A stretch of DNA of 64,000 nucleotides. Origin: Cyanidioschyzon merolae (Eukaryota). Positions within the stretch are counted from its first letter, which is position 1, and every line of letters starts with the position of its first letter. This document shows positions 1 through 59,451 of this stretch, piece after piece. Below the pieces are notes generated by a model. It ran no database searches. It saw only the letters and a list, made by a program, of their open reading frames with translations, and was not told the DNA's origin. Location: assembly GCA_000091205.1 (NCBI GenBank), contig AP006493.2; one strand, given 5' to 3'. The position numbers were made by a program, and so were the translations under genes.

Positions 1-940
1 AACGGTATATACAATCACCAAAAAGAAACACGAGCACTTTCTGCACCAAGAGATGAACGTCTTGATCAACATCCGCAAATTTCTGTTGCCTCCGGAGTGT
101 CCAGCGGTTTCGTATCTCGCACGAAGTCTCTCACAACTCATTTATTATGCTGTGTGCCTCCATGGTGCTGAAATGCTGCAGACTCGTGATGGAAAGAAAC
201 CGCACGCCAGGAGAAAGTGGATTTGAATGACCCTGGACAAAGGCACTTGTTTGGTACGATTCACGAATCCCGAACGGCTTACGCGCTGGGATGTACAGAC
301 AGGGAACGATCCTCGTAAGCATTTTTTCAGAAGATAACGGGATTTTGCTACGCGACGTTACTATGGATATCGCCATCGGAGAGCAGCCTGCGAGAAACGG
401 AACACCGGACGGGTAGTGTCAAGGCTCCCGACGCGAACAGCCTCTGACGTCCGAACAGACGCCTTCTGAGATCGAGGCCTGGCGTCGGACCGAGTGCATC
501 GCCAACGAGTACCTGGTCGTCACCCGCAAGTGAGGGCATCGAATACCACTATGGATCTCAGTGTTTAGATTGGTAGTCTGCTGGCCTACCGAGCGTTTTC
601 AGTAGCGCTCGAATTTGCACCCGGAGGAGCTCACAAGCTGAACCACTGCCAGAGCGTCACTGCGGCAAGCACGGCCACTGACGGGTCGAGCGCACGCGTG
701 CAGCTTGCTCTCACAGGCAAGCGACTGCTCCTTTTCTACAAACATTACACTCGGTTTGAATTTTAAGCGGGAGAGAAGAGCTTTGAGAGCGAAGACGTGC
801 AAGCTGTAGCCGCTGGAGCAGCTGCATATCCGAGCGTTACGCTTTCCGTGGGCACTGCAGAAGCAGGCGCCCTTGCCAAGCGTCGATGCCGGCGCTCAGC
901 GCTTCGAGCGCTAGCATTATCACCTTCCAGAAGCAAAACT

Positions 941-1777
941 TCAGAGTTTATCGCTAGAAAATGGTCGCGGCATGGTTTTCCATTCATCGTTCTCAAAGGG
1001 AATCTGCAGCTCCTCGCACAGCCGCTTCCATCGATCCGTTGTACCCTCAAAAACAAACGTTACCGGAAGGACGCAAACCCCACTACCTCCGACTCGACGC
1101 AGCTGCTTCATAGCTGAGTATATCTGCGTCTTCTTCACTACCAGTCCGATGGCGTACATGCCGTGGGCGACTCCTCGAGGTGGAATCACGGTCGATATGG
1201 TCGGTCCGTCGAGGCCTCGTAGATCCGTGAACTCGCCAAGACGTCGAGCAACGTCACCAGCGCTTTCACCGCGTATGTTCGCAATGACATTGTAGTGTTG
1301 CTGCGCAGTGAAATGGGCATCCATCCGTTCGATCAGCTCTCGCACGAAATCTCGAAGACGCTCGGCAAATGGATATCGAGTTTGATCCGCTGCTAGGCGG
1401 GAACGATTGCCGATAAGTTGCATTTCCGATTGAAGTATCGTGCCGCCTGGTATTTCTTTGAGATTATTTTCTCGGAGCGTCACGCCGCTGCTGATGAGAT
1501 CAATGATGCAATCGGCGGTGCCAAGCTGGGTAGCGGCCTCTAACGCACCATCCTGGTACAGGAGTCGATAGTTCCGGATGGCGTGAGCTGCCAGGAAAAT
1601 TTCCGACTGGTTCGGGAACTTGGTCACGATGCGCAAGGGTTGTGAGCGAGATTCTGTAAAGCGGCGAAAATCTTCAATGTTGTGGATATCGGTCCAGAGA
1701 ATTGGCACTCCCAGACCCAAACGACAGATACCGAAGCCGAGACTGTCGTGGACAATGACGACATCCGTAGAAGTTCC
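941..1777 (-). CDS. hisG: ATP phosphoribosyltransferase (HisG long form), exon 2 (C-terminal 278 aa, to stop at 941)
   Basis: Translation matches HisG: DVVIVHDSLGFGICRLGLGVP (compare plant DLIIVHEALNFGDCHLS), then LRIVTKFPN, DCIIDLISSGVTLRENNLKEI and a C-terminal regulatory domain. The exon starts straight after acceptor CAG (plus 1778-1780), in frame with exon 1. The upstream part of ORF 941..1918 (MMPLGSHAMPLL...) is intronic read-through. Confidence 0.8.
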   Translation of the reverse strand, partial: GTSTDVVIVHDSLGFGICRLGLGVPILWTDIHNIEDFRRFTESRSQPLRIVTKFPNQSEIFLAAHAIRNYRLLYQDGALEAATQLGTADCIIDLISSGVTLRENNLKEIPGGTILQSEMQLIGNRSRLAADQTRYPFAERLRDFVRELIERMDAHFTAQQHYNVIANIRGESAGDVARRLGEFTDLRGLDGPTISTVIPPRGVAHGMYAIGLVVKKTQIYSAMKQLRRVGGSGVCVLPVTFVFEGTTDRWKRLCEELQIPFENDEWKTMPRPFSSDKL

Positions 1778-3086
1778 CTGAATAGTTCGAATCATGAGCA
1801 GGTTAGTTCGTGTTCTTTCTTGCGCATCCACAGCGTTGAATATCCATATGGAGCGAACAGTTGCTCTAGGTTGAGGCAACGGTAACAGCGGCATCGCATG
1901 CGATCCCAAGGGCATCAAGAGGACCGGTCACGCTCATGGAAATGGTATCTCAAGTCCAGTACAGACTGCCCGGGTAAATTGATGCATATCTCCAGGGTCT
2001 GGATACGGAGTCGATGCATCTGCATCAGATGTTCGGAGCCACGGCATCTCTAGTCCAATCCGGACCGTCCATGGCCGCGGAGACGTACCACCGGCGTATG
2101 GATCCGGAAGCGACGCAACTGCATCTGATGTTCGCAGCAGCAGCAGCAGCAGCAGCAGCAGCGCCTTTGGTCCACTGCTATCCGTTCAGGTCCCTAGAGA
2201 CATCAATCTAGGCTCTGCGTTACCAAGTCGCATGTGAGTGGGAATCGAGATACCATGAACCGTACAACGCGCGACACTCGTAGCGATCACTCGCCGCATG
2301 GCGTGTACTCGGGCAGCGACGAATCATCTCCGTTGATCCGCATTCTAGACCAGTTCATCGACAGGAGCATCTGCACCAGTAACCAACGCGCGCTCCAGTT
2401 CAAGGTATGCACCATGTCGAGCGCGTGTGCGTGCGCCGAGTCACCGCCACCAGCAAACACGCTCCACCGCACAAGACTCACTGCGTAAGAAGGCATTGTA
2501 TTCCATAACACTGCTTGATGCTTTTCGCTCTGACGCCATGGATCAAAGCTTCGAAGCTATCATGTGTCCTATCTGCGGGAGCATCTCGCACTGCATACGG
2601 AGTGATGCTTTGAGCACCTGTTCTCGCATGCAAGTGATTCAATATAGAGCAGCGTTGCTGACAGACGCAGAGCCGGACAGCACGCCCCGTCTACAAAAGC
2701 ATTTGCGCCCATCCGAGCGCTTCCACTCTTGATATCCGACTCGGGTACTGCAGCCAAAATGCACGTCACCGTTACCTCACTACAGGATCATTCTAGAGCG
2801 ATGTCGACAGGCTGGTACTCGTACCACGATCAGCTACCGCTATCTCGCCTGGTGTAGTATCCAAAGCAAAACGACTGATTGGCATGCTACGCGCCTGTCG
2901 CTTCGAGTTTCTCTGGGGATACAGCTTGAGCACCAGCGCCTCAGAGCCGAGCATGCCCATTTGCAGGCATGATCGAGTGCACAGGTGCCTCAATGAATCC
3001 CCGTAGCACACGCAGGTGCCGAGCAACCGATCATGGAGAACGTAGGTCTCGGAACTTGCTCCAGCCTACGCCTTGCACAAACTTAC
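1778..3086 (-). other. spliceosomal intron of hisG (1309 nt)
   Basis: Donor GTAAGT at minus-strand 3086..3081. Acceptor ...CGAACTAACctgctcatgattcgaactattCAG|GG ends at plus 1778. An ACTAAC branch-point-like motif lies about 30 nt upstream of the AG. Joining the exons gives DLVAEYN|GTSTDVVIVHDS, with the same spacing as plant HisG (EYGQENEDLIIVHE). A (CAG)9 microsatellite sits inside the intron. Confidence 0.7.
2135..2162. repeat. (CAG)9 microsatellite inside the hisG intron
   Basis: Direct read of the sequence: cagcagcagcagcagcagcagcagcag. Confidence 0.9.
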
Positions 3087-3548
3087 GTTATATTCCGCAA
3101 CGAGATCATAACCAGCAACCCCAATATCCAAGGTACCATCCTTAACTTTACGAACAATATCCGCTGGGCGTTGAAGCCAGAGCTCAACCTCGGGAAAGTG
3201 CTTGATGCTACCCACGTATTGGCGCGGGTTGCGCAGGTCCACTTCGAGGCCGCAGCTATTCAGCAGCTCAACCGCAGCTTGGTGGATCTCGCCTTTCGAG
3301 GGAATCGCGAGTCGAATCGAGTCACGAGCCTCCGCATCCGCACTCAAGCTCGTAGTTTCATTGCCTAGGTTAGCACTTGCAGCGACCTTGCAACTGCGAA
3401 GCTCACGAACGCCCTGCGCTCGCCGCACTCGCAGGCAGCGACGCGTTTCGCAGCTACCGCCACGGAGCCTAACACTCGTGACAATGGTGCTTATCCGTTG
3501 CCGCTCCTTGATGCTCGAGCGTGAGCACTGCACAACAAACGCCATCAC
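3087..3548 (-). CDS. hisG: ATP phosphoribosyltransferase (HisG), exon 1: about 75-aa presequence plus the N-terminal catalytic segment
   Basis: ORF 3066..3548(-) contains DSIRLAIPSKGEIHQAAVELL...WLQRPADIVRKVKDGTLDIGVAGYDLVAEYN, which is the HisG N-terminus. Directly after the AAC (Asn) codon the minus strand reads GTAAGT, a consensus 5' splice site. The N-terminus MMAFVVQCSRSSIKERQR... is S/R-rich and looks like an organellar transit peptide. The choice of start Met is uncertain. Confidence 0.7.
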
Positions 3549-3786: not shown

Positions 3787-5123
3787 AAATAAGGAGACGA
3801 CACTGCTTCCTCCAATGCTGATTTTTAAATCTTTTCCAGAGTTCCTACGCTGTACAGCACCGACGTCCGACGTGCCGCTATGAAGGATAACCGATTTGTA
3901 CGTACTACGTATCGGATGCTCGCGGTGGTTGTTTCGGATTGGTTCATTCGACGCGTCGCCGCCAGCATTCGTTACCATACGAAAATCGTGATGATTCGAA
4001 ATGGGCTCGAGAAACGCACCCTAAAATAACCGATATCAGTATCTAGTGCATACAGGCGAGCCTGCGCTATCCTCCGTGACGTATTGCGCAGGTGTTCGAA
4101 TGCTGGGCTTCGAGGCACCTCGCGGGCGCAGCGTCTCGTGCGGAGAGCTCCACGGCGAGGGAGCCTTGACGTCGTCCCTTATTGGCGTGCTCGTGAGCGC
4201 ATGCCAAAAGCCCGCTCAACCTGTCACGTCAAGTTATCGAGGCCGTCCAAAATTCATCGCCGCCTCGGTTTGTGGTCATCGACGGCATGGCGTGCAGCAA
4301 CCGCTTGATAACGGTTGCGGGAAACGATCCCCAGAGGCTCCCTTGACTTCTGACTGCAGCGGAGAACGCGTATTGGACGCACACTCGAGTCGCCGCAGCG
4401 CTCGCTTCGAGTGCAGCGCGCGTCACCGCTTTGCGAGACGAAAGCGCATTCCGTCCGAGAGTTCTCGGCTTGATCTCCAGCCCGGGGACTTCCCTCTGGC
4501 TCTTGCTCCATCGAAGCGAGCAACGCCTCTCGCAAGCTCCCTATCGAACCTGTGAGCAAACGCGTGCGACAGCAGCGGGCAGAGTGAGTACTCGCCGAGT
4601 GGATCACCCGCACGGAGCCTGTGATCGCTGGGTACACCACCAGCCCCGGTAGCAGAGGAGCGCATCGACGGGAGCCTTCCTGTATCGGTCCATGGCATGC
4701 GCTGAGCAATGGGGCAAGCGCTCGTGAACCAGAGCGTCGCCCGTCGGACAAGACGGGGGCCTCGACGGACATAGCTGCACCTCTGACAGCAGCCCCAAAT
4801 CAGAGTTGCATTGAGCGCACCGGGGCTGTCTCCAGGAAGCAATGGAAACTGCGAGCGAAGCGCGAATCACAGCATTCGCTCGCTCATGGTCTGCTCCGAT
4901 AGCAGCCGGAGGCATCGAAATCGGGACTCGCACGCACTGCCATCAGCATCCTTCGACTGCTGAAGAGAGGCATGGTGGGAAATGAGCGACCGGCGTATTT
5001 GAACCTGGAGATAAGCGAGAGGCGAAGGAAGCACTCGGAGATAGAGCCAGCCACGTCCTATGCTGCCTACTGTGGGAACAGACCAAACCTTTGTCGTGCA
5101 TGAACGAGTCAGAGGATTCGTCC
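3787..5123 (+). repeat. Direct repeat family A, copy 1 (about 1.34 kb)
   Basis: Near-identical (about 99%) to 9972..11308. Every ORF in this span (4046..4555, 4254..4772, 4423..4842, 4604..4933 and others) recurs 6185 bp downstream with 0-3 amino-acid differences. The ORFs overlap on both strands and match no known protein, so the repeat is probably non-coding. Confidence 0.9.
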
Positions 5124-5471
5124 CAATTCAATCTGGTACGCATGCAAACGTTCCGCAAACTCGACGCGACATGCCTCGATTCCGTCCCGCGCTCAACGCC
5201 GCCTACTAGGCGCGTCATTCGACCATGCCGTCCAGAGCGCAATCCTGTGGCCAGCGCGAGCGTTCTAGATATATTCACTGAGGGTGTCGGTCCGCGCCAC
5301 TCGTAAACGCCGTTGCGACCCTTGTCCTGGCAGTATCTCAGCGTTTTGCTGCAAATACGAACAGCTTGAGACTTTCGACGCCGGAGCAGAACGAACTAGG
5401 CGTCCAACAAAGTCGATCGGTGGTGCCCAGATCACGGCGAGTTCAGCGCTGCAACAGCTTGCCCGCAAACC

Positions 5472-6560
5472 ATGCTCGGCGGTTTCGGTGACTTTTTCTT
5501 GCTTGTGGGTGTGACCCTAGGATCCATCCTGCTTAACCTCTTCTTTCTCATTCTGTCCCCGGTGATTGTGCTGTACGTAAAATACGGGGGCGTTGGGAAC
5601 CGTCTGAAGCGGCAGATGCCACTACCACGGGTTCCGCGGTGCGTTTTCATCACCGGCGCGTCATCCGGTGTTGGCGAGGCGCTCGCCTACGAGTATTGCA
5701 AGCGAGCGCGCAAGCAACAGGTTCAGGACCTTGTGCTTTATCTGACTGGTCGAAATGCGACACGGCTCGACCAGGTGTGTGAACGGTGTCGGGAACTCGG
5801 GGCGAGTAAAGTGCATGCCCTAGTCGTGGACGTTGCCGACGAGGCAGCGATGCGTGAGGCGATCACCAAAGCCGACCAAGAACGCCCACTTGATCTCGTC
5901 ATCGCAAACGCCGGTGTATCCGTGACGAATACAGGACTCATGGAGGAAAGCAAGTCAGGCGCTACTGGCTATGAGAGGTCCAAGAAGCTACTTGACGTGA
6001 ACATATACGGTGCCCTGTACACGATCTGGCCGGCGCTGGACTGCATGATCGCACGTCAGCGCGGAGGCCAAATCGCGATTAACGCAAGCATTGCGTCGTA
6101 CATTGCGGGTCCGCTGAATATGTCATACTCTGCGAGCAAAGCCGCAGTTCGATTCTACGGAGAGTCATTGCGCACCGCGATGGCACCATTGGGCATCCGA
6201 GTGAATACGATCCTGCTGGGATTCGTTGAGTCGCGGATGACGGAGCCGTTGAAGAATAGACATGGCCGTTTGCCCTTCGCCAAAAGCGCTGAAGAAGCGG
6301 CTACATCGCTTGCGAATCAAATAGAGCGTGATGTGGGCGTCATCGAATACCCTGCATGGCCATTCGGTGTGCTCGGTGAATGGCTGAATGCCGCCCCGCC
6401 CCTCGTCCGAGAATGGATATGGAGTATGGTGATGGGCCGTATGGTGACGCGCGCGGAACGGAAATTGAGAAAGCGTCAAGCAGCAGATGTGAACATCGCC
6501 GACAGCGGAACCTCGACCAAGTACGCGATCTTGACACGCCTTGTGGAGAAGCTTATCTAA
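5472..6560 (+). CDS. Short-chain dehydrogenase/reductase (SDR), membrane-anchored
   Basis: N-terminal hydrophobic helix (FFLLVGVTLGSILLNLFFLILSPVIVLYV). Rossmann motif VFITGASSGVGEAL, then NAGV, and the catalytic YSASKAAV (YxxxK). Confidence 0.8.
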   Translation: MLGGFGDFFLLVGVTLGSILLNLFFLILSPVIVLYVKYGGVGNRLKRQMPLPRVPRCVFITGASSGVGEALAYEYCKRARKQQVQDLVLYLTGRNATRLDQVCERCRELGASKVHALVVDVADEAAMREAITKADQERPLDLVIANAGVSVTNTGLMEESKSGATGYERSKKLLDVNIYGALYTIWPALDCMIARQRGGQIAINASIASYIAGPLNMSYSASKAAVRFYGESLRTAMAPLGIRVNTILLGFVESRMTEPLKNRHGRLPFAKSAEEAATSLANQIERDVGVIEYPAWPFGVLGEWLNAAPPLVREWIWSMVMGRMVTRAERKLRKRQAADVNIADSGTSTKYAILTRLVEKLI

Positions 6561-7934
6561 ATGCACAGATCAGCATCCTTGACGTGAGCAGGTCGAGCGA
6601 CAACAGCGTTTCCGGGAAAGACGTCCACGGCGATGCGCGAATTCGGCACTGCGCGACCCGGCGGTGATCGCTGCCGGACACGTGTCCACGTATCCGTGGC
6701 TTGCGTGCGCGCGATGCGTGCATCGGGAGCGCTTCCCGTATTGTTCGCGACAAGTTTTTCGACATTGCCATGCGCATGGATACATGCATCATTGCAACTG
6801 CGCATGCCTTCCATGGAGCGGTTACGAGGCGGGACTTGATGGACGTCAGATCATAGACTACGGTTGCGAGGCTGGATCGTGGCGAGAGCGCAAGCGCTTG
6901 TAAGCGTGATGAGATAAATTCAAGTGGTATTGCGTCTGGGCACTTTGGATTCCTCGATAAGCACTGCAGTCAGCGCGATGCTATGTGAACTGGGCCCCCA
7001 TCAAGGGAATTCTCTGACGGTGAGGTCATTTTTATGAAAAGCATCTCTGCACGGTTCTCTTCTCGCGAGCGCTCCTAGGCGTGGATCTGTGCGGTTCCAT
7101 CGAGGTGGCACTGGAACCGTGTTGTTTGCGTTGAAATTTCGGTCGCGGTCAATCCGACAAAAGAACTGCTTTAGGATATCGGTCTGAGCACCGCAGCACT
7201 GAGCATTGACGGTCGTCGGGCGCGAACTTACATGCAGGCCTTCGATTTTTCGATGATGCTCGCATTGGATATGCAGGTAACGAGCCCAAAAGTGGTCTAA
7301 ATAGCGCTGCGGATTTTGCGGGAACTGCAGCGGAAAGCTGCGCAGTGCACGCGGACTCGTGAAAGCCACCTCGTGCCTAATGCTCAAGCCAGCACGCTTT
7401 TTCTTGGAAAAAAGTGCCCGCGTTGCGACTGTTTACCAGAATCGTATCGACGGGCTTTCATCAAGTGTCTGGGATCATTCCGGGCGGCAGCATGCATTTG
7501 GCTGCTTCGAAAGTACTTTTCGTGATACGCGACTACATTCCCATGAACCAAAACCCCCAGCAAGTTCATTCTTTGCGTCACGTTACAGTGCCTGCAGTCA
7601 CAATAATGCCTGAGATCATTGCCACAGTGCTCCGCGATGCATTTTTCTGTGGCGAGTACGCGCCCCGGCAGGCGTCGCAAGTTCCAGTGGCACTCTCGGC
7701 TAGCGTTGTCGACCACCGGCATGCGCTAGACAGCCCCAGGACGGGATCGCCAACCGCTGACGGTTCCGATTCCGAAACATCTGCAGCGATTCCAGGCATA
7801 TTTCATCTACAAGAACGTATCGCCAAGGCGTGCTAGCCCAGTGCCTTCACTCAACGAGGACGAATTATTGTCCAGGATACATCTGGTTTCGTCATGCTTT
7901 CATCTGTACAATCGCTGGTATGCGGGAGACGCTC

Positions 7935-9101
7935 CTACACCGCAGTGTCCTCCTGCATAGCGGAAACATCCAGTCGCATGTTCACTTCCTTCGCGAGCCC
8001 CGTGCTCTCAGGTACGCCAGGCCCGGTGGCAGGTGTGTGTTCGCTTTGGGCATCGGCTTCCGCCGATGCAGTATCAAATTTGGTGCTGGTACTTGGTTGC
8101 TGTTGCCTGTACCGCTGATATAGAAATACACCTACGACGCATACGGCGTAACCGCTGAGGTTCAGCCACGAAATGCGGTTCCGAAACGTTATCCAAGAGA
8201 CGCCGATCACCACGGCCGTCTTTACCGTTCCAAGCACGGTGGAGGTTAGGGCACTACTGCGATCTATGAGCAAGATATCCCCAAAATTCAGCCCAACAGC
8301 GAGCAGGCCACCGGCAATAAGAATCAAAATCGTTTCGATCACGTACAGCGCATCTTTGAGCAGCGCATCGTGACGCATTCGGGTCGTCCCGATGGCTAAC
8401 GCTGCTGGCAGAAGCGTTACAAAAGAGATCGGCGCTTGATAATAGAGAATTTGTATTGGACTAAGGCCCACGGCACTATGCAGTTTGCCCTCGGCACCAT
8501 ACCGAAGAAGCAGCTGCTGTTCAATCAAACGCGCGGAGCCGCATAATACGGCCAGTAATTCTAGCGCGAAACCAACTGGATGAAAGTTCATTTCACCAAC
8601 CGTCGCGACCGCTAAACCGACACTAATGATGACGACGATAGCCAACAAGACACCAGAACGCTGCTCTAGTCCAGCGGCGAGTCCGAAGAGCAAAACCGAT
8701 GCCGGCATGCTGCTCTTAATCATTTCCACGAACGAGGCTTCCAGGAAAAGGTAGCCGGCATTGGTGAACACGATATCAAGCGCGACAAAAAGACCGACAA
8801 GCAGCAAGCGAGGTTTGCGGTACGGCTTGTCGATCGTCGGTCGCGAGCTTGGTACGCACCACATATAGAATTGAGTCGCGAGGGAAAGAAAGAGCATATG
8901 GAAACAGGTGACCACGAGAGGGTACGGGAAGCCCCAGCCGAGGCATCGGCCAGCCGTCCGTGAGGTCTGCCGCTCCTCGGCGGCACAGTTTGTAAACAAC
9001 CACTTGTTGTAGATCACTAGAGAAGTTGAAAACGAGTAAGCAAGCACCACTGCTTTCAGCAGCTGTACAGCTTGCTCACGTCGTGGAGGCGTCGTCATCA
9101 C
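7935..9101 (-). CDS. TPT / nucleotide-sugar transporter family (DMT superfamily) membrane protein
   Basis: Multi-pass hydrophobic protein with the SLVIYNKWLF motif typical of the TPT/SLC35 family and about 9-10 predicted TM helices. Hydrophilic C-terminal tail. Confidence 0.6.
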   Translation of the reverse strand: MMTTPPRREQAVQLLKAVVLAYSFSTSLVIYNKWLFTNCAAEERQTSRTAGRCLGWGFPYPLVVTCFHMLFLSLATQFYMWCVPSSRPTIDKPYRKPRLLLVGLFVALDIVFTNAGYLFLEASFVEMIKSSMPASVLLFGLAAGLEQRSGVLLAIVVIISVGLAVATVGEMNFHPVGFALELLAVLCGSARLIEQQLLLRYGAEGKLHSAVGLSPIQILYYQAPISFVTLLPAALAIGTTRMRHDALLKDALYVIETILILIAGGLLAVGLNFGDILLIDRSSALTSTVLGTVKTAVVIGVSWITFRNRISWLNLSGYAVCVVGVFLYQRYRQQQPSTSTKFDTASAEADAQSEHTPATGPGVPESTGLAKEVNMRLDVSAMQEDTAV

Positions 9102-9971
9102 TAGTCGCCCATGCGTACACGCAATCCTAAGCAGCGTGCGCGCAAACGGAAACCGCTCGCGATAGATGCGGACGTTGTGCGAGCACCTCTAAAACCAAAC
9201 CAGGTTGCACACTCAAAGTGTGCCTGCACCGCCTTGCATAAACTGCCTGCAAGCGCCACCCAAAGCTACAGTGGCTGTCGGGGCGACGCCCTGCCGCTCT
9301 CGCTCCCTGTACGGCGCCGCGGAGTGCAACAGTCCAATAGGCCTCCAACGTTTACGCGCTACTGGAGAGCGTCTTCCCGTTGCAGAGCAAATTTTGAAAC
9401 AGCTTCCCGCCCTGCTGCTGTATCAACCTCGCTTAAGAGCAACTGCTTTGTGCTACGAAGAATGCAGGACGTATACGTCTCCACAGCAAAACCGACGCAT
9501 AGCGCACATGCGGAGCGTCCAGCACAGTCGGCAAATTCTTTTTCATGGACAAAACGTGTCCATGGGCCAGCGGTCTCCGATTGTGCGCTTTTTCCTTTCT
9601 TTTCTTTTTTGTCAGCGTGCGGTGAAGTATCCATCAAACCGCCTGCTTCCAAGTTACATTATCCATACTTCTTCTCGGATATTCTGGTCGTTTGGTTCGT
9701 TCTATTGTGTGCCGAGCGCCTGCTTTGTTGGCCCGCAATGCCGCCTATAGCGCCGGTGCGGTCTCTGCGCCGAGGCAGAACACGGCGTTGCCGTACCACA
9801 CAGAGGACATCGGTTCGGAAGCAGTCGGTCAATGCGTGACGCTTTCGGGTCGTGTGCAAGCAACGAGCGCACCTGCGCTCTTTGGAGCGCATGCTTGCTG
9901 CCTGGTGCGGGATTCAAGGATCGATGGATTCGAGGCAGCACCCGACTCGAATACGCTGGACAAAGGTTGGA

Positions 9972-11308
9972 TGTATGGAAGACGACACTGCTTCCTCCAA
10001 TGCTGCTTTTTAAATCTTTTCCAGAGTTCCTACGCTGTACAGCACCGACGTCCGACGTGCCACTATGAAGGATAACCGATTTGTACGTACTACGTATCGG
10101 ATGCTCGCGGTGGTTGTTTCGGATTGGTTCATTCGACGCGTCGCCGCCAGCATTCGTTACCATACGAAAATCGTGATGATTCGAAATGGGCTCGAGAAAC
10201 GCACCCTAAAATAATCGATATCAGTATCCAATGCATACAGGCGAGCCTGCGCTATCCTCCGTGACGTATTGCGCAGGTGTTCGATTGCTGGGCTTCGAGG
10301 CACCTCGCGGGTGCAGCGTCTCGTGCGCAGAGCTCCACGGCGAGGGAGCCTTGACGTCGTCCCTTATTGGCGTGCTCGTGAGCGCATGCCAAAAGCCCGC
10401 TCAACCTGTCACGTCAAGTTATCGAGGCCGTCCAAAATTCATCGCCGCCTCGGTTTGTGGTCATCGACGGCATGGCGTGCAGCAACCGCTTGATAACGGT
10501 TGCGGGAAACGATCCCCAGAGGCTCCCTTGACTTCTGACTGCAGCGGAGAACGCGTATTGGACGCACACTCGAGTCGTCGCAGCGATCGCTTCGAGTGCA
10601 GCGCGCGTCACCGCTTTGCGAGACGAAAGCGCATTCCGTCCGAGAGTTCTCGGCTTGATCTCCAGCCCGGGGACTTCCCTCTGGCTCTTGCTCCATCGAA
10701 GCGAGCAACGCCTCTCGCAAGCTCCCTATCGAACCTGTGAGCAAACGCGTGCGACAGCAGCGGGCAGAGTGAGTACTCGCCGAGTGGATCACCCGCACGG
10801 AGCCTGTGATCGCTGGGTACACCACCAGCCCCGGTAGCAGAGGAGCGCATCGACGGGAGCCTTCCTGTATCGGTCCATGGCATGCGCTGAGCAATGGGGC
10901 AAGCGCTCGTGAACCAGAGCGTCGCCCGTCGGACAAGACGGGGGCCTCGACGGACATAGCTGCACCTCTGACAGCAGCCCCAAATCAGAGTTGCATTGAG
11001 CGCACCGGGGCTGTCTCCAGGAAGCAATGGAAACTGCGAGCGAAGCGCGAATCACAGCATTCGCTCGCTCATGGTCTGCTCCGATAGCAGCCGGAGGCAT
11101 CGAAATCGGGACTCGCACGCACTGCCATCAGCATCCTTCGACTGCTGAAGAGAGGCATGGTGGGAAATGAGCGACCGGCGTATTTGAACCTGGAGATAAG
11201 CGAGAGGCGAAGGAAGCACTCGGAGATAGAGCCAGCCACGTCCTATGCTGCCTACTGTGGGAACAGACCAAACCTTTGTCGTGTATGAACGAGTCAGAGG
11301 ATTCCGTC
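9972..11308 (+). repeat. Direct repeat family A, copy 2
   Basis: See copy 1. Both boundaries start at gGACGACACTGCTTCC and end at ...GAGTCAGAGGATTC. Confidence 0.9.
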
Positions 11309-12854
11309 AATGGTATTATGACTTGCATGTATGCGTGCATGCAAATAGTCTGATACCAGAGAAGCCGCCATCTTCTCTCTCTAAGTGCGACGACGCTCCG
11401 CTCATTTCTAGAGCAGAATACCCGTCAGGAATGGATGCTCGACCGATCTCGCGATAATCCAGGTGCTGCACCTCTGTCGGGCTCACGCATATGCTTCTAA
11501 TGCAGGCACAGGGCAGCGACTGAAGCGCTTCGCCAGACGCTGGTTGTGCGCTTGCCAGGTCACGCACACTCGTCTCATACGGTGCGAACTCCATGCATTC
11601 ATCGAGCTTTCCCCGGTGTACCCAAATGCTGCTGGTGGCCACACAAGAGACCTCGGGTTCACCATGAGCGTTTCAACGTGTCTCGCACTCCATACTGGTG
11701 CTCTCCTCGGAATTCGAGCTGAGATGTATCCTGTGAGGATTCAGTTGCGGCACCTTACGCGACCACCGATGAATACCTGGTGCTTGCGTAATGCCGTGTG
11801 CGGGCGCTGACACGAACTGCAGTATGCTTCTGTGCGAGGCCAGCATGTGCCGTATTCCTGGAATCCAACAGGATGCGTAGCCAGGATACACTCATGTGCT
11901 ATGCTTTCGTGCCGAAAAGCTTCCCATCGTATATGTGTACCGCTCGCAGTGCCGATCACAAGCGCAGTGCTGTGGCGACAAGGGATCAAACATCGTGCCG
12001 TACTGTCGCGGTTTCGCCTCTGATGTGAACGGCGTTTCCGACTCAACGAGCCGCCGCCAGTCTCCCGTGAGCCGCTGCCTTTCTTCATGCGGTCGAGAGC
12101 CAGTCGCGATCAAGGCTCTTTGCGTACATCGAGGCAATGCCTGATTCTTTTGCAAAAATGCAGTGTGTCGATGACATGCTGGGGCTTCCAACCGCCACCT
12201 ACCGCGTCGGTGTCTGAGTATGTATGTGGTCAGTGATGCAGAAAACGCTCTGCGACACTAGAGCGTAATGATACATACACTTACAGACGCCTCCAGTCCT
12301 TCTTTGACCCGCTGACTGCTATAGATTTTGTTTTATCCAGGCAGAGAACGACCCTGAGAGGCTGCCACACCAAGTCGCATAGCGACAGCTTCCCGGTTCT
12401 CGCCTCGAGCAGTACACTTTACATGATATGGATGGCGGCGTTGATGTCCCGGTTCACGTACTCCTTGCGTTTATTGCCTGGAGTGGAACTCGCCTTTGCA
12501 AGGATTGTTTGACCTCGTGCACTCTGCGCCACTACAAGCTCATCATTATCCTGCCGTGCTGGCACCGTTTCTCGCCTATCTCCTCTCTCTTTTTCTTCGT
12601 CTCCTTCGCTCGATCATCGGTGAGAAGAGGATTTTTCCGTTTTTGTCGAACCCGGCGATGACGGGCATCTAGGATCTTCCACTTCTATGCCCATCGCTTT
12701 CCCTTAGACTTTATATTTCTTCAAATGAACGTACATCGAACCCATCTACTATAAACCGTGAAAAAGCAGTTGGTTACTGTATTCTAGAGGTGGAACACCA
12801 TTGCGTTGAAAGACTAAACGTTAGCCGTCAGGCACTTTCAGTTGAGCGCGCGCG

Positions 12855-15095
12855 TTGCACTCGAACGAATCTTATTCCATTTTAGGTAGCTGCAGCTGCT
12901 GCGGTATCTGTGCAGGCTTTAGAAGCCCGAAGTCCACAAAGGTTTATCAAGGAATGTTGAGGAAAGTGCGCGAAGAGCTTGCATACGATCAAGCGCTGTT
13001 CGCACTGCAGGCTTGGCAGAGCGGGTCCCGCTGGTGGCAGCGCGCTTCTGCAACGCCTTTTACGGAGTGTTCGCGGTGGCCCGGCGGGGGAACGTCGCAC
13101 GCTGGGCAAGCCGCCGTCAAAGTCCGCAAAAGACAGAGAATCTCTGTGCCAAAGTGGCAATGTGCAGCAAAGCGCTCCGTTGAACACGTTTGTCGTGAGT
13201 GTGGCCACACGGAGGCCCGGCGCTACGGGCGTTGTCCGTGCTGCCAGAGCTGGGACAGCATGGTGGAACAGCCTCGCAGGCGGCGTGAAGCTGGCGGTTT
13301 ACAACGCCCACGCGACGATTTCGCCAACCAAAGAAGACACAAGCTCTGGAGCGGTGATGCAAATCTTTGGTCTGGTGACAGCGACCAGCTCAATGACTGG
13401 TTGCAGGGCGCGGGCACCGCGCCGTTGCCACTTGGTATCCTACGGCGCGGGCTAGGTCCAGGAACTGAACACAAGGTTGCGAAGGCGTCCGCATTGGACG
13501 GCAGTTCGAGCGGTAATGCATCGGGGAAGCTTCCGCACGCTGCATCCATGGAATCTAACAGAGCGCAACCAGTTGAGGTTCACAGGTTACTGACCTGCTC
13601 GGCCGAGTTTAATCGAGTGACTGGCGGAGGCATTGTTCCTGGTTCACTGCTCCTGATCGGCGGGGAGCCCGGCAACGGAAAGAGCACTCTTCTGTTGCAG
13701 ATTGCAGGTGATGTGGCCAGCAGCGGCTGCCGCGTCCTCTATGTTTCTGCGGAGGAATCTGTAGAACAGGTAAGTTCGCGTGCCGCCCGTTTGTTTGGAC
13801 TCATGGAACCCCGTCAAGAGGAATCGACGGAAAGGCGTCAAAGCCTCGAGAGAAATCTTCTCATCATGCACGAGGCCTGCTTGGAGGATATTCTCGACAT
13901 TGTTGAAGAGATCCAGGCGGGGCGAGAAAACGCTCCACCAAACAGCGCTCCAAGAGCGACAACGGCGAGCGCATCGACAACACCTACGGCGACTGTGCCC
14001 AGCACAGGTGCTCCGTCGAAAGCAGTCGGCGCTGGACGCAAAGACGCCTCCACGGTGGACAACACTGATGCCCAGTCGCCGCTGGGGTTGCTCATTATCG
14101 ATTCCATTCAGACTGTGTATACGCAGGAGAATGAGCAAGAATCAGCAGCCCCGGGCAGTATCGTGCAGGTGCGGCACTGCACGAACCGTCTGCTTGGACT
14201 CGCAAAGCGGCAACAACAACGGCTAAGAGAGCCGTGGCAGCGCACTGCGATTATGCTGATTGGTCACGTCACCAAATCAGGTGACTTGGCTGGACCCAAA
14301 CTGCTCGAGCACATGGTCGACGTGGTCCTCTACCTCGAATCTGAGCAGGGTCTCTTCCAGCATCGCATTCTGCGCTGTACAAAAAACCGCTTCGGACCGA
14401 CGGATATCGGCATCTTTGATCTCACCTCACGGGGTCTCGTAGATGTTCCGAATCCAAGCCTGCTGTACTTCCAGGCTGCCGAGTCGAGTCTGATGCATGA
14501 CAGTGATGGAGCCGCGAAAGCGCCGAACAACCCATTCCACACCTACGCCCGTGAATCCACTGACGGCACCGCATTCTCCATGGTCGTCGATGGAACCCGC
14601 GCTTTCCTCGTCGAAATCCAGGCCTTGGTTGCAAAGACCTCGCTCACCCAGCCCCGTCGGACGAGCAACGGTTTCGATCTTTCTCGTCTTTACGTTATTC
14701 TGGCGGTTTTATCAAAACGAGCTCGACTGCGACTCGAGACACACGATGTCTATATGAACGTGGTAGGTGGAGCCCGCATCCAAGACCCCGCTGCAGATAT
14801 GGCGGCAGCGGTGGCACTTGCATCCTCATTACTCGCGAGGGCGCCTCGGCCGGATACAGCATTCATTGGAGAGCTCGGCCTGCAGGGTGAAGTTCGCCCG
14901 GTACCCCGTCTCGACCTGCGTCTACGGGATATCGCGCGACTCGGATTCCGCTTCTGTGTTTGCAGCGATCGTTTGAGTTCAAGACAGGAGACTGCTGCTC
15001 GGGAGACGGGCCTCCAAGTCATTCGATGCCGTACTATTTCCCAGGTGCTGCAATTCGGCATTCCCGAAGAGATAGCACCCACGGAGCAGCACTGA
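12855..15095 (+). CDS. radA: DNA repair protein RadA/Sms (bacterial type; zinc finger, RecA-like ATPase, Lon-like C-terminal domain)
   Basis: C4 zinc finger CRECGHTEARRYGRCPCCQSW. Walker A FNRVTGGGIVPGSLLLIGGEPGNGKSTLLLQ. KNRFG motif RCTKNRFGPTDIGIFDL. Lon-like domain VVGGARIQDPAADMAAAVALASS. A low-complexity insertion lies between Walker A and LLIIDSIQ. The N-terminal roughly 100 aa may be a targeting sequence; the start codon is uncertain. Confidence 0.85.
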   Translation: MHSNESYSILGSCSCCGICAGFRSPKSTKVYQGMLRKVREELAYDQALFALQAWQSGSRWWQRASATPFTECSRWPGGGTSHAGQAAVKVRKRQRISVPKWQCAAKRSVEHVCRECGHTEARRYGRCPCCQSWDSMVEQPRRRREAGGLQRPRDDFANQRRHKLWSGDANLWSGDSDQLNDWLQGAGTAPLPLGILRRGLGPGTEHKVAKASALDGSSSGNASGKLPHAASMESNRAQPVEVHRLLTCSAEFNRVTGGGIVPGSLLLIGGEPGNGKSTLLLQIAGDVASSGCRVLYVSAEESVEQVSSRAARLFGLMEPRQEESTERRQSLERNLLIMHEACLEDILDIVEEIQAGRENAPPNSAPRATTASASTTPTATVPSTGAPSKAVGAGRKDASTVDNTDAQSPLGLLIIDSIQTVYTQENEQESAAPGSIVQVRHCTNRLLGLAKRQQQRLREPWQRTAIMLIGHVTKSGDLAGPKLLEHMVDVVLYLESEQGLFQHRILRCTKNRFGPTDIGIFDLTSRGLVDVPNPSLLYFQAAESSLMHDSDGAAKAPNNPFHTYARESTDGTAFSMVVDGTRAFLVEIQALVAKTSLTQPRRTSNGFDLSRLYVILAVLSKRARLRLETHDVYMNVVGGARIQDPAADMAAAVALASSLLARAPRPDTAFIGELGLQGEVRPVPRLDLRLRDIARLGFRFCVCSDRLSSRQETAARETGLQVIRCRTISQVLQFGIPEEIAPTEQH

Positions 15096-16439
15096 TTGAT
15101 CGAGCTGCTTCGGGGTGTGGGTGCGGGTCCCGATGCATTGTACGCATCATGAAAACGCATCCAGACGCTCTGCACTGAGATGGAACCAGAGTCGCACGTC
15201 GCAAGGCATCGAAGGGCGTACCAGACGCTGGCGACGCTGGTGAACGTTGCCGACGCTGTCACGTGCGCTGGGCGCCAGGAGACTGCGTTTGCGCTATTCG
15301 GTATCGACAGCGGTCGTCTGCAGCGCTCAGCACCCCAAAACGTCAATACAGCAGGCGTTTAGGATCTTGAGTTGCTTAGTAGATGGTACTGATTGTGAGG
15401 TGGCGGTGTCCGCGGGTGCGTTTACAACCGCGGCTCCGTGCACGCATCCTCGTGGCTGAGTTTACGTGCCGTTTCTATATGTGCAGTACGCGCGTCGCAA
15501 ATATCCCGGCTGCGGTCATTGCATACTCATGGATATCGTGTCTGGGAGCAGCACGGGCAGCTACCAAATGCCGAAGAAAACTACTTCCATTGTGTAAACA
15601 TGTATATGTGTGTATGCGGCGCTCCAGTGTGTCAGAAATGCTGACCGTTCCACACCAGTTGCTTCGTCGAGGCGGGAATCCAGTCACGTTTCTCCTGGTC
15701 GCTGCTTTCGTTCCTTCCGAAAAGTTGCAATGTTTCCGCACAATGCCTTCGCCGAGTACGAAACGATTCCCATGGAATTCCGCTCGATAGAAAGCCGTTG
15801 GACGCTCAGAAAGCATGCCGCATATCAGGGTATTGACCGAGACGGTCAAGTGCCGTTGCAAAAAGTGTTTGCGGGCGTTGCTGCAGGTGGAATCACGCGA
15901 GAACAAGCCTCTCAACTTCGACTGACTTGCCGTCTGATATTCGATCGGCTCCATGTGCGCGCTTCAGTGCATGTGGCTCTGATACACGCTCTTGGTCTCA
16001 AGCTGTCCTCCCAAGAACACTTGCTCGTGATGCGCGTATACCCTCTTGAACGCATCGATGGGAATCGTGTAGAATCGATTCCTGCACTCCCTGTCTGCTC
16101 AAGGCGACGCCCTGGGATTGCGGTATTCGCACGTCAATGCACATTCACGGCCATAGGCTATCAAGAATCGATGCGACTTGTCGGTCACTTCCTTTTCTGA
16201 CTCTTTGAATACGTTTGCGAATGTATGCCCCTTGCCTCTGTGCAAGAAAAACAGCGGCGACTTTTACGCTATCTCATGTGCTCCTGTCAGGTGTCGTCCG
16301 CATGGACGATTTGGACGCTCATCTAATTTCTGCATGAATCACAAAAACATCCACATTTTCTCGATAGGTTGCAAAACGCATCGAGATGAATCATGACGCC
16401 GTCATCGCCTTTGTTGGTATACCCGCGTTGCGCCGATCA

Positions 16440-21185: not shown

Positions 21186-22500
21186 GTGACACCCCCGCTG
21201 AATTTATTCGAATGCCTTCTCGCAGCGTATAGATATGGAGATAGAGACCAGGACGCAGTGTACCGTGCAGATCGTAGACGAATTGCCTTTGGAATATATT
21301 GTTTACTGAATGGCGCAAGCAGGACTGTATTTCTACCTCAGGTCAGTCATAACTCAGTGCGCAGATGTTTGGTGAACACTAAAAGAAGCAAGTACTGGCG
21401 CTCCGCGCCGCACACGAACACTCTTGAAGACTGCTTGCGATCAACGGTAGAAATCAACACGTTGATCAGCTTACGGAAGGCAAAAGCGATGCTTGTAGTC
21501 GCCACGGGCGTCTCTCCTTCTAGTCAGCTTGTTCGTATTTTCCTAGAAACTCTGGGATCCATTCGCCAAGGAAAGAGTCATTGTTCACGAACGGCTCTTT
21601 TCCACCGAAATCGCAACGAAAGCGTTCCTGGAATGCCGCGATGATTATAAAATACAGGAACGTCAGTTTGTTTTTTAGTCGATGTGACTTGCCTCGGATG
21701 AAACAGTCCTTGCGTATATCGATATTCGCGGAGCAGGGCCCCCATGCTACGTACTATCGAACTCGTAGAGAACGGGGAAATCATGTGTTCCCGCTGCATT
21801 GGATTCATTTGGCGGCCGCAATTACGCTCACGGAAAAAGCCTATAGAACAACACCAAGCACTTCGTCGAATCATGGAATACTTTTCCCATGATGTCTGGC
21901 GACGTCCTTCTAGTGGCCAACATGGTATTTCACGATCCCTGTTGCGTTCGAGCTTTTGCCGATTCTATCTTGGAAAAGAGCTACTTTTCATCCCGGCGTA
22001 CTTTTCGAGCTTGAACCGTATCTGAAGGGGTGTATTCTCTCGAGAACCGTAACGATTGCCCCAGGAGGCGAATCGTTCAAGCGCTCAGCACACGGTTATA
22101 CCGGGACGCATGTCGTCTTTCTTCCGCAAATCCCTCTTCCTCCAGAAAGGCCCTCACCTAAGGGTATAAAGAAGTGCGTTGCGATTAGAAAAATTAAGGC
22201 ATGAGCTCGATTATACGCTTCAGAAAGTCGAGATACGGAGAAGGCGAAGAAGGGCCCGGTAGATAAAAAATGCATATCGCAGACAGAGCGATAAATAGCA
22301 GAGAGGGCACGAGTTCGAGGAATCCTCGCACTTTCAGCTCAAACAGAGGCACAGAACGCATGGCATTCATGAACCGAGACTTTAACGCCGCCATCAGTAT
22401 CAGGAGTTGCGCAAGGCTGAAGAAGAGGCCCCAGGAGCTGAAGCTGTCTAACTTTGTGATGCAGCCTCTTCGACTCTCGAAGTTGACAAAGAGAAGCTGA
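21186..22500 (+). mobile_element. Decayed TnpB/Fanzor-like (IS605 OrfB-type RuvC nuclease) element, copy 1
   Basis: C-terminal RuvC-III signature MAFMNRDFNAAISIRSCA at 22360..22401. An upstream zinc-ribbon-like segment reads TIELVENGEIMCSRCIGF. It sits in a lower-GC island. The reading frame is interrupted, so it is not a clean single ORF. Confidence 0.4.
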
Positions 22501-22799
22501 AGCCGATGGCGGGCGGCCGGTCCAAAAACGCTGGGAGGCGTCTGCGTATGGGTATTCATTTACCCTCCAAGGTCGTAGTACATTTAATGTTTCACGGACA
22601 TGTGCAGTTTCCGTCCGTGCTGCAGACTGGTGCAGCTTCCCGCCACCTGCCCCATGCTGGAAAGCATTCGTTACGCTGCGACGCGCCAGCCGCGCAGCGT
22701 CGCCGGATATTCCAGAGCCGCCGCGACCTCGCGCTTGAGAGCGCACGTTCCGTTAGAAACGGGGTTTTTCGTTTTGGAGCGGGTGCAGAGGCCGTAGTC

Positions 22800-31575: not shown

Positions 31576-32008
31576 AGACAAGAGTGAATTTTCTTGGACA
31601 ACCACGCAAAGTGGATTTATATTGGAAAAAGTTGGAAGTATTAGATGGCCGCTCGAGAACACCTGGAAGGCACCTGCACGTCAGCTGTAGACGTCTTGTC
31701 TAGGGCGGTTTACTCGCCACTACTGTGCACTGCCGGCGGCATCGTTTTTCTTTTCAAGGGCGTTCGGTTTCGGAGGTGATGAACTTTTCGTGTTCCGGAA
31801 CAAAAGCACTAAAACGTTGCCGTTCCCGGAGCTGGGGTATTTGCTTAGTCGTTTTCAACTTTTCCGTGTAGACGACTGAGGTATTACGCGTTATACTGGG
31901 CTGCAGAGGGGAGCACAAAAGCTCCGCAAGCAAACTCGAAGGTATTTTAGGTAGCCTGATCGAAACGCAGAAGCGCTGGTCCGTAACTTCCCGGGTACGA
32001 AAGGAAAC

Positions 32009-43145: not shown

Positions 43146-43149
43146 ACAA

Positions 43150-57029: not shown

Positions 57030-57072
<43 letters not shown>

Positions 57073-59432: not shown

Positions 59433-59451
59433 TACGCCGCTATCTCCGTAG

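Follow-up and report, generated by a model that had tools for sequence, protein, structure and literature searches.

Background

Yeast, Drosophila and human low-copy repeats offer well-known examples of concerted evolution by interlocus gene conversion. In the model alga Cyanidioschyzon merolae, gene spacers have grown by repeat expansion, which accounts for 2.09 Mb (12.7% of the genome) compared to 0.59% in Cyanidiococcus, according to Cho et al. (2023; PMC9812998). A family described as a "novel interspersed repetitive element", or WSV repeat, comprises 253 copies with a mean length of 3.2 kb and carries a truncated ORF weakly similar to the WSSV protein WSV486 (Nozaki et al. 2007, PMC1955436). 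No LTR retrotransposons have been reported in this species (PMC1955436). Loop-out between direct repeats serves for marker removal in strain 10D (PMC13353863, PMC13062707), where intrachromosomal homologous recombination has been shown to excise the flanked DNA (Takemura 2018, as cited in PMC13062707).

Here we describe a locus within 64,000 nucleotides of contig AP006493.2 of C. merolae 10D (hereafter the window, to which all positions refer). The identity of the window is borne out by proteins that match those of 10D exactly, on a chromosome of 852,849 bp. An earlier note, made from the letters alone, had read it as a two-gene cassette, consisting of a short-chain dehydrogenase/reductase (SDR) gene and a TPT-family transporter gene, bracketed by near-identical direct repeats. 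We consider it probable that the repeat, here called R, is a non-coding spacer repeat of 1.25-1.33 kb belonging to the C. merolae lineage, that the pair arose by local duplication and has been kept alike by conversion, and that the SDR-TPT gene pair is ancestral.

Results and discussion

Structure of the repeat pair

Self-BLAST and global alignment of the window returned the two direct repeats R1 and R2 listed in Table 1, spaced 6185 bp start to start. Over 1329 aligned bases they differ by 11 substitutions and a single one-base indel (99.1% identity), which bears out the earlier figure of about 99%. The starts proposed at that time, 3787 and 9972, lie about 8 bp too far to the left, as the outer flanks do not align (the alignment fails beyond 3792/3795 and beyond 5122). 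R1 is indeed close to the start of hisG (3545/3548), at a measured 247-250 bp upstream, and ends 350 bp ahead of the SDR ATG, whereas about 880 bp separate R2 from the TPT start and about 1.65 kb lie between its end and the RadA gene. The 4857 bp between the copies hold two intact convergent genes, as had been claimed, with ORFs of 362 (SDR) and 388 (TPT) amino acids that match Pfam families adh_short and TPT. The two exons of the neighbouring hisG are parted by a canonical intron of 1309 bp.

Table 1 Features of the window discussed in the text
Feature	Position	Strand	Remarks
hisG, left neighbour	941..3545	-	two exons, 3545..3087 and 1777..941
R1, repeat copy 1	3795..5122	+	R family member; hisG/SDR divergent spacer
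Tract free of R1/R2 differences in 10D	4402..5098	+	697 bp; substitution-free gap this large, P ~0.003
SDR gene, BAM80596.1	5472..6560	+	"similar to 11-beta-hydroxysteroid dehydrogenase"; 362 aa; adh_short E 4e-33
TPT-family transporter gene	7935..9101	-	387/388 aa; TPT E 1e-28; convergent with SDR
Family X member (different dispersed family)	9532..9794	+	spacer shared with R2; 83% identical to 30555..30819(-)
R2, repeat copy 2	9980..11308	+	99.1% identical to R1; TPT/RadA divergent spacer
Family Y member (third dispersed family)	12150..12824	+	spacer shared with R2; nhmmer match 42850..43549(-), E 1.5e-61
RadA/Sms-like gene, right neighbour	12955..15095	+	713-aa gene as called on metagenome contigs; syntenic in L025
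C3, diverged full-length R copy	25124..26396	+	Sen54/WD40 spacer; R positions 115..1296; nhmmer E 1.5e-64 vs R1
C4, diverged R copy	28792..29505	+	WD40/TPR spacer; R positions ~45..733; nhmmer E 1.9e-21
C5, diverged full-length R copy	59369..60598	-	CCDC90-like/LpxB-like spacer; nhmmer E 6.6e-47
C6, R copy cut by the window end	63414..64000	-	upstream of LpxB-like gene; nhmmer E 1.8e-22

The first bases of R are AGACGAC and the last GATTCGTC / GATTC(C)GTC, so that the element does not have the TG..CA ends of an LTR. A boundary search around each copy and around the R1-to-R2 composite found no flush target-site duplication. Single copies show only 4-mers near their boundaries, as do 70% of random pairs, and the composite shows one non-flush 6-mer (CGTCAA, offset by 6 and 4 bp) that is matched by 5.6% of random boundary pairs. 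The terminal inverted match extends over merely 4-5 bp (GACGA/TCGTC), short of the terminal inverted repeats with target-site duplication of a DNA transposon or MITE, and inspection of the termini found neither a poly-A tail nor LTR-like ends. As gag/pol is lacking too, the earlier view that a classical LTR retrotransposon is unlikely holds.

Reproduction of the locus and ancestral gene order

The arrangement hisG-R-SDR-TPT-R-RadA is not an assembly artefact, because independent environmental assemblies reproduce it. JGI metagenome contigs L010, L015, L016 and L017 are collinear with the window through both copies at about 99.4% identity, and L022 is likewise collinear for copy 2. Many shorter contigs end precisely at repeat edges, all four repeat junctions were recovered in independent metagenome and Logan contigs, and both copies occupy identical junctions in every assembly examined. 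That the reference contains a misplaced repeat, either collapsed or duplicated, a danger raised in the earlier note and inherent in near-identical repeats generally, has practically no probability in view of these contigs, of a 10D genome finished telomere-to-telomere (PMC1955436) and of the 11 sites at which R1 and R2 differ in that strain. A 22-mer scan of three metagenomes found the near-identical repeat in two 3' contexts only, R->SDR and R->RadA, and in no third.

In Cyanidiococcus yangmingshanensis (contig L025) the order hisG-SDR-TPT-RadA is kept and the repeat is absent. The spacers there measure 341 and 384 bp vs. 1924 and about 3857 bp in the C. merolae window, and coding DNA alone aligns between the two. 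A more distant Cyanidiales contig, L026, retains hisG-SDR-TPT. The SDR orthologues occupy the same position in Cyanidiococcus and L026 (74% and 63% identity), the TPT orthologue is syntenic in both, and SDR-TPT is present in every C. merolae-like contig examined. The locus of the copies C5 and C6 (Table 1) is also syntenic and repeat-free in contig L029; nhmmer with the R family found no match in L025 or L029, whose spacers are 341, 384, 872 and 778 bp long. Judged from these comparisons, the gene order hisG-SDR-TPT-RadA is ancestral and the repeat arrived later.

A mobile or composite cassette and a horizontal arrival were both considered for SDR and TPT, and were rejected because synteny is conserved across three Cyanidiales lineages. 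The pair was also ruled out as the interior of an LTR, TRIM or LARD element, since Cyanidiococcus has it in the same place, flanked by hisG and RadA, and in L026 it follows hisG. The notion of a cassette travelling with its repeats therefore has to be abandoned: when relatives are compared for its presence, as the earlier note had proposed, the two genes are found in Cyanidiococcus and L026, and the newcomer is the repeat, absent in Cyanidiococcus.

A dispersed family in gene spacers

Four further, diverged R copies (C3 to C6 in Table 1) occur in the window, with 51-58% identity and nhmmer E-values of 1e-21 to 1e-64. They are collinear with R for up to 1.2 kb and detectable by profile-level DNA search only. 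The family amounts to about 6.5 kb of the 64 kb, copy counts covering this window and the orthologous contigs. The six copies lie in six different spacers and form three neighbour pairs of the same orientation, with one or two genes inside each. In every physical pair the partners are mutually closest relatives: R1 and R2 at 99.1%, C5 and C6 as a second near-identical pair (99.6% across 59465..59991), and C3 grouping with C4 in 947 of 1000 bootstraps. The limits of R1/R2 identity match the limits of family homology to within about 10-40 bp.

By profile search, then, R1 and R2 are members of a diverged, dispersed, non-coding family that extends beyond this locus. The earlier note had named a high-copy LTR or TRIM family as a ground for refutation; multiple copies do exist, but they are not LTR or TRIM elements and lack target-site duplications. 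The presence of multiple diverged spacer copies and their absence from the shorter orthologous Cyanidiococcus spacers are the features of the repeat expansion of the C. merolae lineage. No description of this R family was found in the literature. The R2 spacer also holds members of two other dispersed families, X and Y, the latter matching in addition 48404..48719, 22227..22604 and 31448..31621.

Two lines of argument were dropped. By position alone the six copies are not significantly clustered (P=0.17); with orientation included P falls to about 0.02, in a test that was post hoc. A first nhmmer pass gave homology from 9895, as if R1 were a truncated form of a longer element at the R2 site, but the alignment was not significant vs. 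shuffled controls.

Coding and functional signals

Nothing points to a protein or a known RNA encoded by R, which evolves at about the background rate. Its ORFs had been described as lacking homology, and this is upheld: Pfam matched neither the long ORFs nor any of the six reading frames, codon-usage scoring of R was negative, substitutions between family members lack a 3-base periodicity, and a search of 5.8 billion proteins with the 172-aa ORF returned its own cluster only. The Rfam search suggested in the earlier note found no structured RNA, whether the cut-off was the gathering score or E<=1, and ARAGORN found no tRNA in R.

Selection on a promoter, insulator or long non-coding RNA serving the flanking genes might also keep the copies identical. 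A same-strand gene lies downstream of five of the six copies, four copies face the start of a divergent gene, and transcription from C. merolae interspersed repeats has been reported (Nozaki et al. 2007, PMC1955436). However, family members are just 51-58% identical and share no conserved block >7 nt across three lineages, between-strain polymorphism in R is at background level, Rfam is silent, and Cyanidiococcus has the same genes with spacers of 341-384 bp. A selected module of this kind is very unlikely.

Probable gene conversion between R1 and R2

The differences between the copies are unevenly placed, with 10 of the 11 substitutions falling within 3821..4401, inside the first 607 bp of the repeat, and the tract that follows being free of them in 10D (Table 1). 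This tract is variable between strains, at 4728, 4732, 4880 and 5025, and is likely the most recent gene-conversion tract. Position 4181/10366 is A in both 10D copies and G in every other strain sequence, and in junction-phased contigs R1 and R2 segregate for the same pair of alleles at 3821/10006 and at 5099/11284. Clustered differences (P ~0.003), lineage-private shared alleles and polymorphisms common to both copies thus support ongoing gene conversion between R1 and R2, which the earlier note had suspected. The argument draws solely on junction-phased sites and lineage-private alleles, a handful of positions, since the metagenome assemblies collapse the R copies and leave internal sites unphased; polymorphism shared by R1 and R2 could also be mimicked by recurrent mutation or mixed strains. 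R1 equals R2 in every long contig, an identity rejected as proof of concerted evolution because loop-resolving assemblers reuse one collapsed repeat sequence.

One possible alternative is a one-off segmental duplication, in which a single copying of a 1.33-kb piece shortly preceded the split of the sampled strains, and the 0.8% is plain divergence, with no conversion. The R1/R2 divergence of 0.83% is near the between-strain value of 0.5-0.75%, and just two contexts were found for the repeat. Nevertheless, we regard such a history as unlikely, given the strong clustering of differences, the private A at 4181 common to both 10D copies and the alleles that segregate in both copies across strains. 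In the C5/C6 pair, moreover, near-identity begins at 63474, inside the element, and similarity to R extends to 63414.

Origin of the pair

We return to duplication followed by conversion. The R family is specific to the C. merolae lineage, at least relative to Cyanidiococcus, sits in gene spacers and is probably part of the known repeat expansion enlarging the intergenic DNA. One copy most likely derived from the other by a local, same-orientation duplication of the whole element, a step that we infer; since then intrachromosomal gene conversion, a step supported by the population data, has probably held R1 and R2 about 99% alike. As a by-product, 1.3 kb of direct homology would leave the 4.9-kb SDR-TPT segment open to deletion by loop-out or to amplification by unequal exchange, as experiments in this species imply.

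R could instead be a non-autonomous transposon with its master copy elsewhere, R1 and R2 being two independent recent insertions. The unit of near-identity is the whole family element, and the family is a dispersed one that the sister genus lacks, all of which would suit an active mobile element. We nonetheless think this very unlikely: the termini offer an inverted repeat of at most 4-5 bp and no target-site duplication, poly-A tail or LTR-like end, the 22-mer had no third context in three metagenomes, the other family members are about 45% diverged and do not indicate recent bursts, and independent same-orientation insertions 6 kb apart would have had to occur three times in 64 kb.

Possible excision or amplification of the SDR-TPT segment

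The earlier note held the bracketed segment to be prone to excision or amplification. The geometry permits this, but the assemblies examined yielded neither a deletion nor an amplification allele, and no hisG-R-RadA deletion contig occurs among the contigs examined. Pop-out or amplification in nature appears plausible because direct-repeat excision works experimentally in C. merolae. In contigs L018 and L019 the TPT flank is joined through R to SDR, which an assembler resolving the R-B-R graph loop would also give. L018 was considered as a closed circle and rejected, as it lacks a terminal overlap and its far end departs from the window after 9490.

It is conceivable, though highly improbable, that the R family spreads through a dedicated mode of local copying that preserves orientation and brackets genes, that the resulting near-identical pairs act as built-in recombination handles for reversible loop-out or amplification in C. 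merolae populations, and that the junctions in L018 and L019 are real. If so, the bracketed membrane SDR and TPT-type transporter might be looped out or amplified as circles or tandem arrays under stress. Such behaviour would resemble the repeat-mediated gene amplification known in Leishmania.

Implications and comparison with known systems

What appeared to be a repeat-bracketed cassette is better read as an ancestral gene pair with a lineage-specific repeat that has invaded its spacers, a correction that guards against taking such structures as mobile or horizontally acquired. R may serve as a concrete case, defined by its sequence, of the otherwise anonymous repeats behind the doubling of C. 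merolae spacer length, one in which an element's closest relative is its physical neighbour. Natural 1.3-kb direct repeats offer a handle on rates of intrachromosomal conversion and loop-out in a haploid, efficiently recombining and genetically tractable host. For C. merolae engineering, near-identical spacer repeats are possible sources of off-target homology and instability.

Like the repeats of the expansion treated by Cho et al. (2023; PMC9812998), R is lineage-specific, non-genic, located in spacers and absent from the shorter syntenic Cyanidiococcus spacers, and its density here (about 6.5 kb per 64 kb) is of the same order as the 12.7% given in that study. The excerpted account deals in RepeatModeler totals, and the R family, gene-bracketing pairs and near-identical neighbours are not described there.

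R also resembles the WSV repeat, compared here by published description only, in being dispersed, C. merolae-specific, unclassified and intergenic, and the spacer between TPT and RadA holds an X+R+Y mosaic of about 3.3 kb, beside a published mean of 3.2 kb. In contrast, R itself is only 1.25-1.33 kb long and showed no ORF or protein similarity in any frame, and its six copies in 64 kb represent about six times the density that 253 copies would give.

With LTR retrotransposons, TRIM and LARD elements the R pair shares two long direct repeats around an internal region, but it lacks TG..CA ends, target-site duplications and gag/pol, and its internal genes are in ancestral synteny. The marker-recycling loop-out of C. 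merolae likewise involves a chromosomal segment flanked by direct repeats, although the natural R repeats are longer and the bracketed DNA consists of two native genes.

Interlocus gene conversion of dispersed or segmental duplicates similarly leaves near-identity limited to the paralogous tract, clustered differences and shared polymorphisms, and the R copies are also close, in direct orientation and in a host proficient in homologous recombination. Here, however, conversion would act on non-coding spacer repeats, in an algal genome that is very compact and poor in repeats, and the data come from partly unphased metagenomes.

The repeat pair and the genes between its copies

In this region, self-comparison of the window gives a single long direct repeat, whose copies R1 and R2 (see table) differ by 11 substitutions and one 1-base indel over 1329 aligned positions; the resulting 99.1% identity bears out the value of about 99% in an earlier note on this DNA, while the repeat starts proposed there (3787 and 9972) lie about 8 bp too early, the flanks beyond the limits in the table not aligning. 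The 4857-bp interval between the copies carries two intact, convergent ORFs, as that note had also proposed, with matches to short-chain dehydrogenases (SDR) and to TPT-family transporters. The distance from R1 to the hisG start codon is 247-250 bp. No TG..CA termini were found on the repeat (R), whose terminal inverted match is merely 4-5 bp, and no flush target-site duplication surrounds R1, R2 or the whole pair; as suspected earlier, this is not an LTR element.

Coordinates of R-family copies, bracketed genes and other dispersed repeats in the window
Feature	Position	Strand	Description
R1	3795..5122		near-identical direct repeat
R2	9980..11308		near-identical direct repeat
SDR ORF	5472..6560	+	362 aa; adh_short match E 4e-33
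TPT-family transporter ORF	7935..9101	-	387/388 aa; TPT match E 1e-28
C3	25124..26396	+	nhmmer E 1.5e-64; R positions 115..1296
C4	28792..29505	+	nhmmer E 1.9e-21; R positions 62..734
C5	60598..59369	-	nhmmer E 6.6e-47; R positions 12..1248
C6	63999..63414	-	nhmmer E 1.8e-22; window end cuts copy
Family X	9532..9794; 30555..30819(-)		short dispersed repeat, 83% identity, unrelated to R
Family Y	12150..12824; 42850..43549(-); 48404..48719(-); 22227..22604(-); 31332..31680; 15819..16241		dispersed, non-coding

An assembly artefact, the alternative raised in the earlier note, is excluded, as the junction structure recurs in environmental assemblies that represent close relatives at 99.2-99.6% identity. 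Four JGI contigs (L010, L015, L016 and L017) follow the window collinearly through hisG, R1, SDR, TPT and R2, two of them (L010 and L015) extend on through RadA, and L022 covers TPT, R2 and RadA. Dozens of shorter contigs (4.5-5.5 kb) hold exactly the unique interior and end 100-540 bp inside the repeats, the behaviour expected of a true repeat. Six proteins of the window are exact sequence matches to C. merolae 10D entries (BAM80596, 80600, 80601, 80605, 80608 and 80611) on a chromosome of 852,849 bp, and the 10D genome is itself a finished telomere-to-telomere sequence (PMC1955436).

The neighbouring hisG gene contains a canonical spliceosomal intron of 1309 bp (1778..3086, minus strand; GTAAGT ... 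CTAAC ... CAG), giving a spliced CDS of 431 aa, and the Cyanidiococcus hisG model likewise includes an intron, about 1 kb long. Introns are present in just about 27 C. merolae genes.

Diverged members of the repeat family

Standard BLAST detects R1 and R2 alone. Sensitive searches (blastn with +1/-1 scoring, nhmmer with R1 as sole query and three rounds of profile iteration), all of which agree, add four homologues, C3 to C6, and yield no further match elsewhere in the 64 kb. Pairwise identity across the lineages of the family is 51-58%, with alignments collinear along the entire element. The edges of R1/R2 near-identity match the edges of family homology within about 10-40 bp, so that the near-identical unit corresponds to one whole element. 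An 85-bp extension of homology at the R2 site failed a shuffle control and was dropped.

C5 and C6 form a second near-identical pair of direct repeats (59465..59991 and 63474..64000, 99.6%), bracketing an LpxB-like gene of 660 aa (60992..62974, minus strand). The orthologous Cyanidiococcus locus (L029) retains the order big ORF, CCDC90-like, LpxB-like with spacers of 872 and 778 bp, and no R-family match was found in it. The giant ORF in the window (49028..57880, plus strand, 2950 aa) yielded no Pfam domain at E<=0.001; its counterpart beside the CCDC90-like gene in L029 measures at least 2674 aa (the model is partial at the locus end) and has no Pfam match on record. A 31-nt exact inverted match between this ORF (57045..57075) and a (GCA)n microsatellite in the hisG intron (2134..2162) is simple-sequence similarity only.

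The six copies make up three physical neighbour pairs, (R1, R2), (C3, C4) and (C5, C6), whose partners share orientation and are mutually closest relatives; in bootstrap analysis C4 grouped with C3 in 947 of 1000 replicates, and the reciprocal placement of C3 next to C4 was recovered in 676 of 1000. Positional clustering of the copies is not significant (P=0.17), and a post hoc test that includes orientation gives P about 0.02. As the simplest reading we infer local duplication: the family would grow by same-orientation duplication of whole elements into nearby spacer, and the pairs would differ in age or in extent of homogenisation. No termini, target-site duplication or enzyme betraying the duplication mechanism was found. 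When three metagenome samples were scanned with a 22-mer lying close to the R 3' end, the sequence downstream was in every case one of the two known contexts, which is evidence against a further near-identical copy acting as master elsewhere.

Two other dispersed families, X and Y, are also represented in the R2 spacer, where the X copy separates R2 from the TPT start. Of family Y there are at least five copies; several immediately precede the starts of genes (RadA, M16 peptidase, UBC and a TPR protein), and the family might be promoter-associated. The M16 peptidase (minus strand) is split into two ORFs 375 bp apart (40641..41486 and 41861..42670), with M16 in one and M16_C in the other, which may represent another intron or a frame shift.

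Ancestral gene order

SDR orthologues were found in Cyanidiococcus yangmingshanensis (74% identity) and in a more distantly related alga of the Cyanidiales (ENA contig L026; 63%). In the Cyanidiococcus locus L025 the order hisG(-), SDR(+), TPT(-), RadA(+), PRP39-like, UBC, Sen54 is that of the window apart from the PRP39-like HAT-repeat gene, which is inverted (18136..20010 in the window, 16508..18337 in L025) between flanking genes unchanged in order and orientation. The hisG-SDR spacer measures 1924 bp in the window versus 341 bp in L025, and the TPT-RadA spacer about 3857 bp versus 384 bp; in L026 hisG, SDR and TPT are likewise adjacent, with spacers of 16-240 bp. Alignable DNA between the genera is coding only, and neither alignment nor profile search found R-like sequence in L025 or L026. 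The conserved order and the repeat-free relatives indicate that SDR and TPT were not carried in between two repeats, leaving the repeat-bracketed cassette of the earlier note unsupported; rather, each of the two spacers beside an old SDR-TPT gene pair has gained 1.33 kb.

After the Cyanidiales orthologues, the next matches of the SDR are bacterial SDRs of about 260 aa (38-48% identity), and those of the LpxB-like protein are cyanobacterial 'lipid-A-disaccharide synthase-related' proteins, at about 45% query coverage only. Both genes may be of bacterial or endosymbiont ancestry.

Probable gene conversion between the copies

Of the 11 substitutions between R1 and R2, ten occur in the leading 607 bp, and a tract of 697 bp (4402..5098) shows no difference (P about 0.003 for such a gap). 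Strains do vary within this tract (at 4728, 4732, 4880 and 5025), so its identity is not due to constraint. The duplication is common to all strains seen. Site 4181/10366 is A in both 10D copies and G in every other sequence. Two sites are phased, that is, near enough to a junction for unique flank to assign the copy, and at each of them R1 and R2 share the same pair of alleles. At 3821/10006 (A/C), 10D has A in R1 and C in R2; among the contigs, L002 has A in R2, and L011, L020, L024, L007 and L008 have C. At 5099/11284 (C/T), R1 carries C in L003, L005, L006, L011 and L020 and T in L001, L004, L012-14 and L024; for R2, L021 and L023 show T and L022 shows C. The near-identity of C5 and C6 stops at 59465/63474, and each copy still aligns to R for 60-70 bp further, a pattern that fits a conversion tract or edge decay in long-homogenised duplicates.

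Young duplication alone might be thought to explain two such similar copies, but the clustered differences, the 10D-private allele at 4181, the alleles common to both copies and the C5/C6 edge all speak against it and make gene conversion, which the earlier note had offered as an option, the likely source of the near-identity. Inside long metagenome contigs R1 equals R2 exactly; this was not counted as evidence, since it is attributed to the assembler reusing one collapsed repeat (an R-B-R graph loop).

Possible excision and amplification

Homologous DNA recombination is very efficient in C. merolae. Direct-repeat loop-out has been used for marker removal in strain 10D (PMC13353863; Takemura 2018, cited in PMC13062707). 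Deletion of the 4.9-kb SDR-TPT segment, or its amplification by unequal exchange, is therefore plausible in mechanistic terms. The direct-repeat geometry thus permits the events to which the locus was earlier said to be prone, but neither was observed: no contig with a hisG-R-RadA deletion was seen, and both genes are retained in every strain. In two contigs, L018 (6176 bp) and L019 (5632 bp), TPT-side flank (9596/9660..9979) is followed by R and then by SDR (5123..), as it would be where a circle closes or where units of 6185 bp adjoin in a tandem array; an assembler walking the R-B-R loop gives the same path. L018 has no terminal overlap and its last 95 bp do not match the window after 9490, and an assembly-graph loop or chimera is the more likely source. 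It seems to us very improbable that R pairs act as handles by which the bracketed genes are reversibly excised or amplified.

Nature of the element and comparison with known repeats

No Pfam domain was found in the long ORFs of R or in any of its six frames, the codon-usage signal present in neighbouring genes is absent from all of its frames, and substitutions between family members have no three-base periodicity. A search of 5.8 billion proteins gave no homologue of its 172-aa ORF beyond the 99% cluster to which the ORF belongs, in line with the lack of protein homology reported earlier. The Rfam search suggested for structured RNA returned no family at any threshold, and no tRNA was detected. 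Blocks longer than 7 nt conserved across three R-family lineages are absent, and differences between strains amount to 0.5-0.75% in R versus about 0.5-0.6% in surrounding DNA. From the coding and RNA null results, the lack of long conserved blocks and the background-level strain differences we conclude that R appears to be non-coding and to evolve roughly neutrally.

R1 and R2 are a homogenised pair of spacer repeats, one on either side of two genes whose linkage is ancestral; the repeat is non-coding, lineage-specific and unclassified. Compared by description, R differs in size from the 'WSV486-like' element of Nozaki et al. (253 copies, 3.2 kb; PMC1955436) and lacks any ORF similarity, which argues against simple identity of the two. 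According to PMC9812998, C. merolae spacers average 1890 bp versus 930 bp in Cyanidiococcus because of repeat expansion, which accounts for 2.09 Mb or 12.7% of the C. merolae genome versus 0.59% in Cyanidiococcus; the R family and its lengthened spacers agree with the expansion as described there. The R1/R2 pair is a newly and concretely defined instance of two known phenomena, the repeat expansion of C. merolae and interlocus gene conversion.
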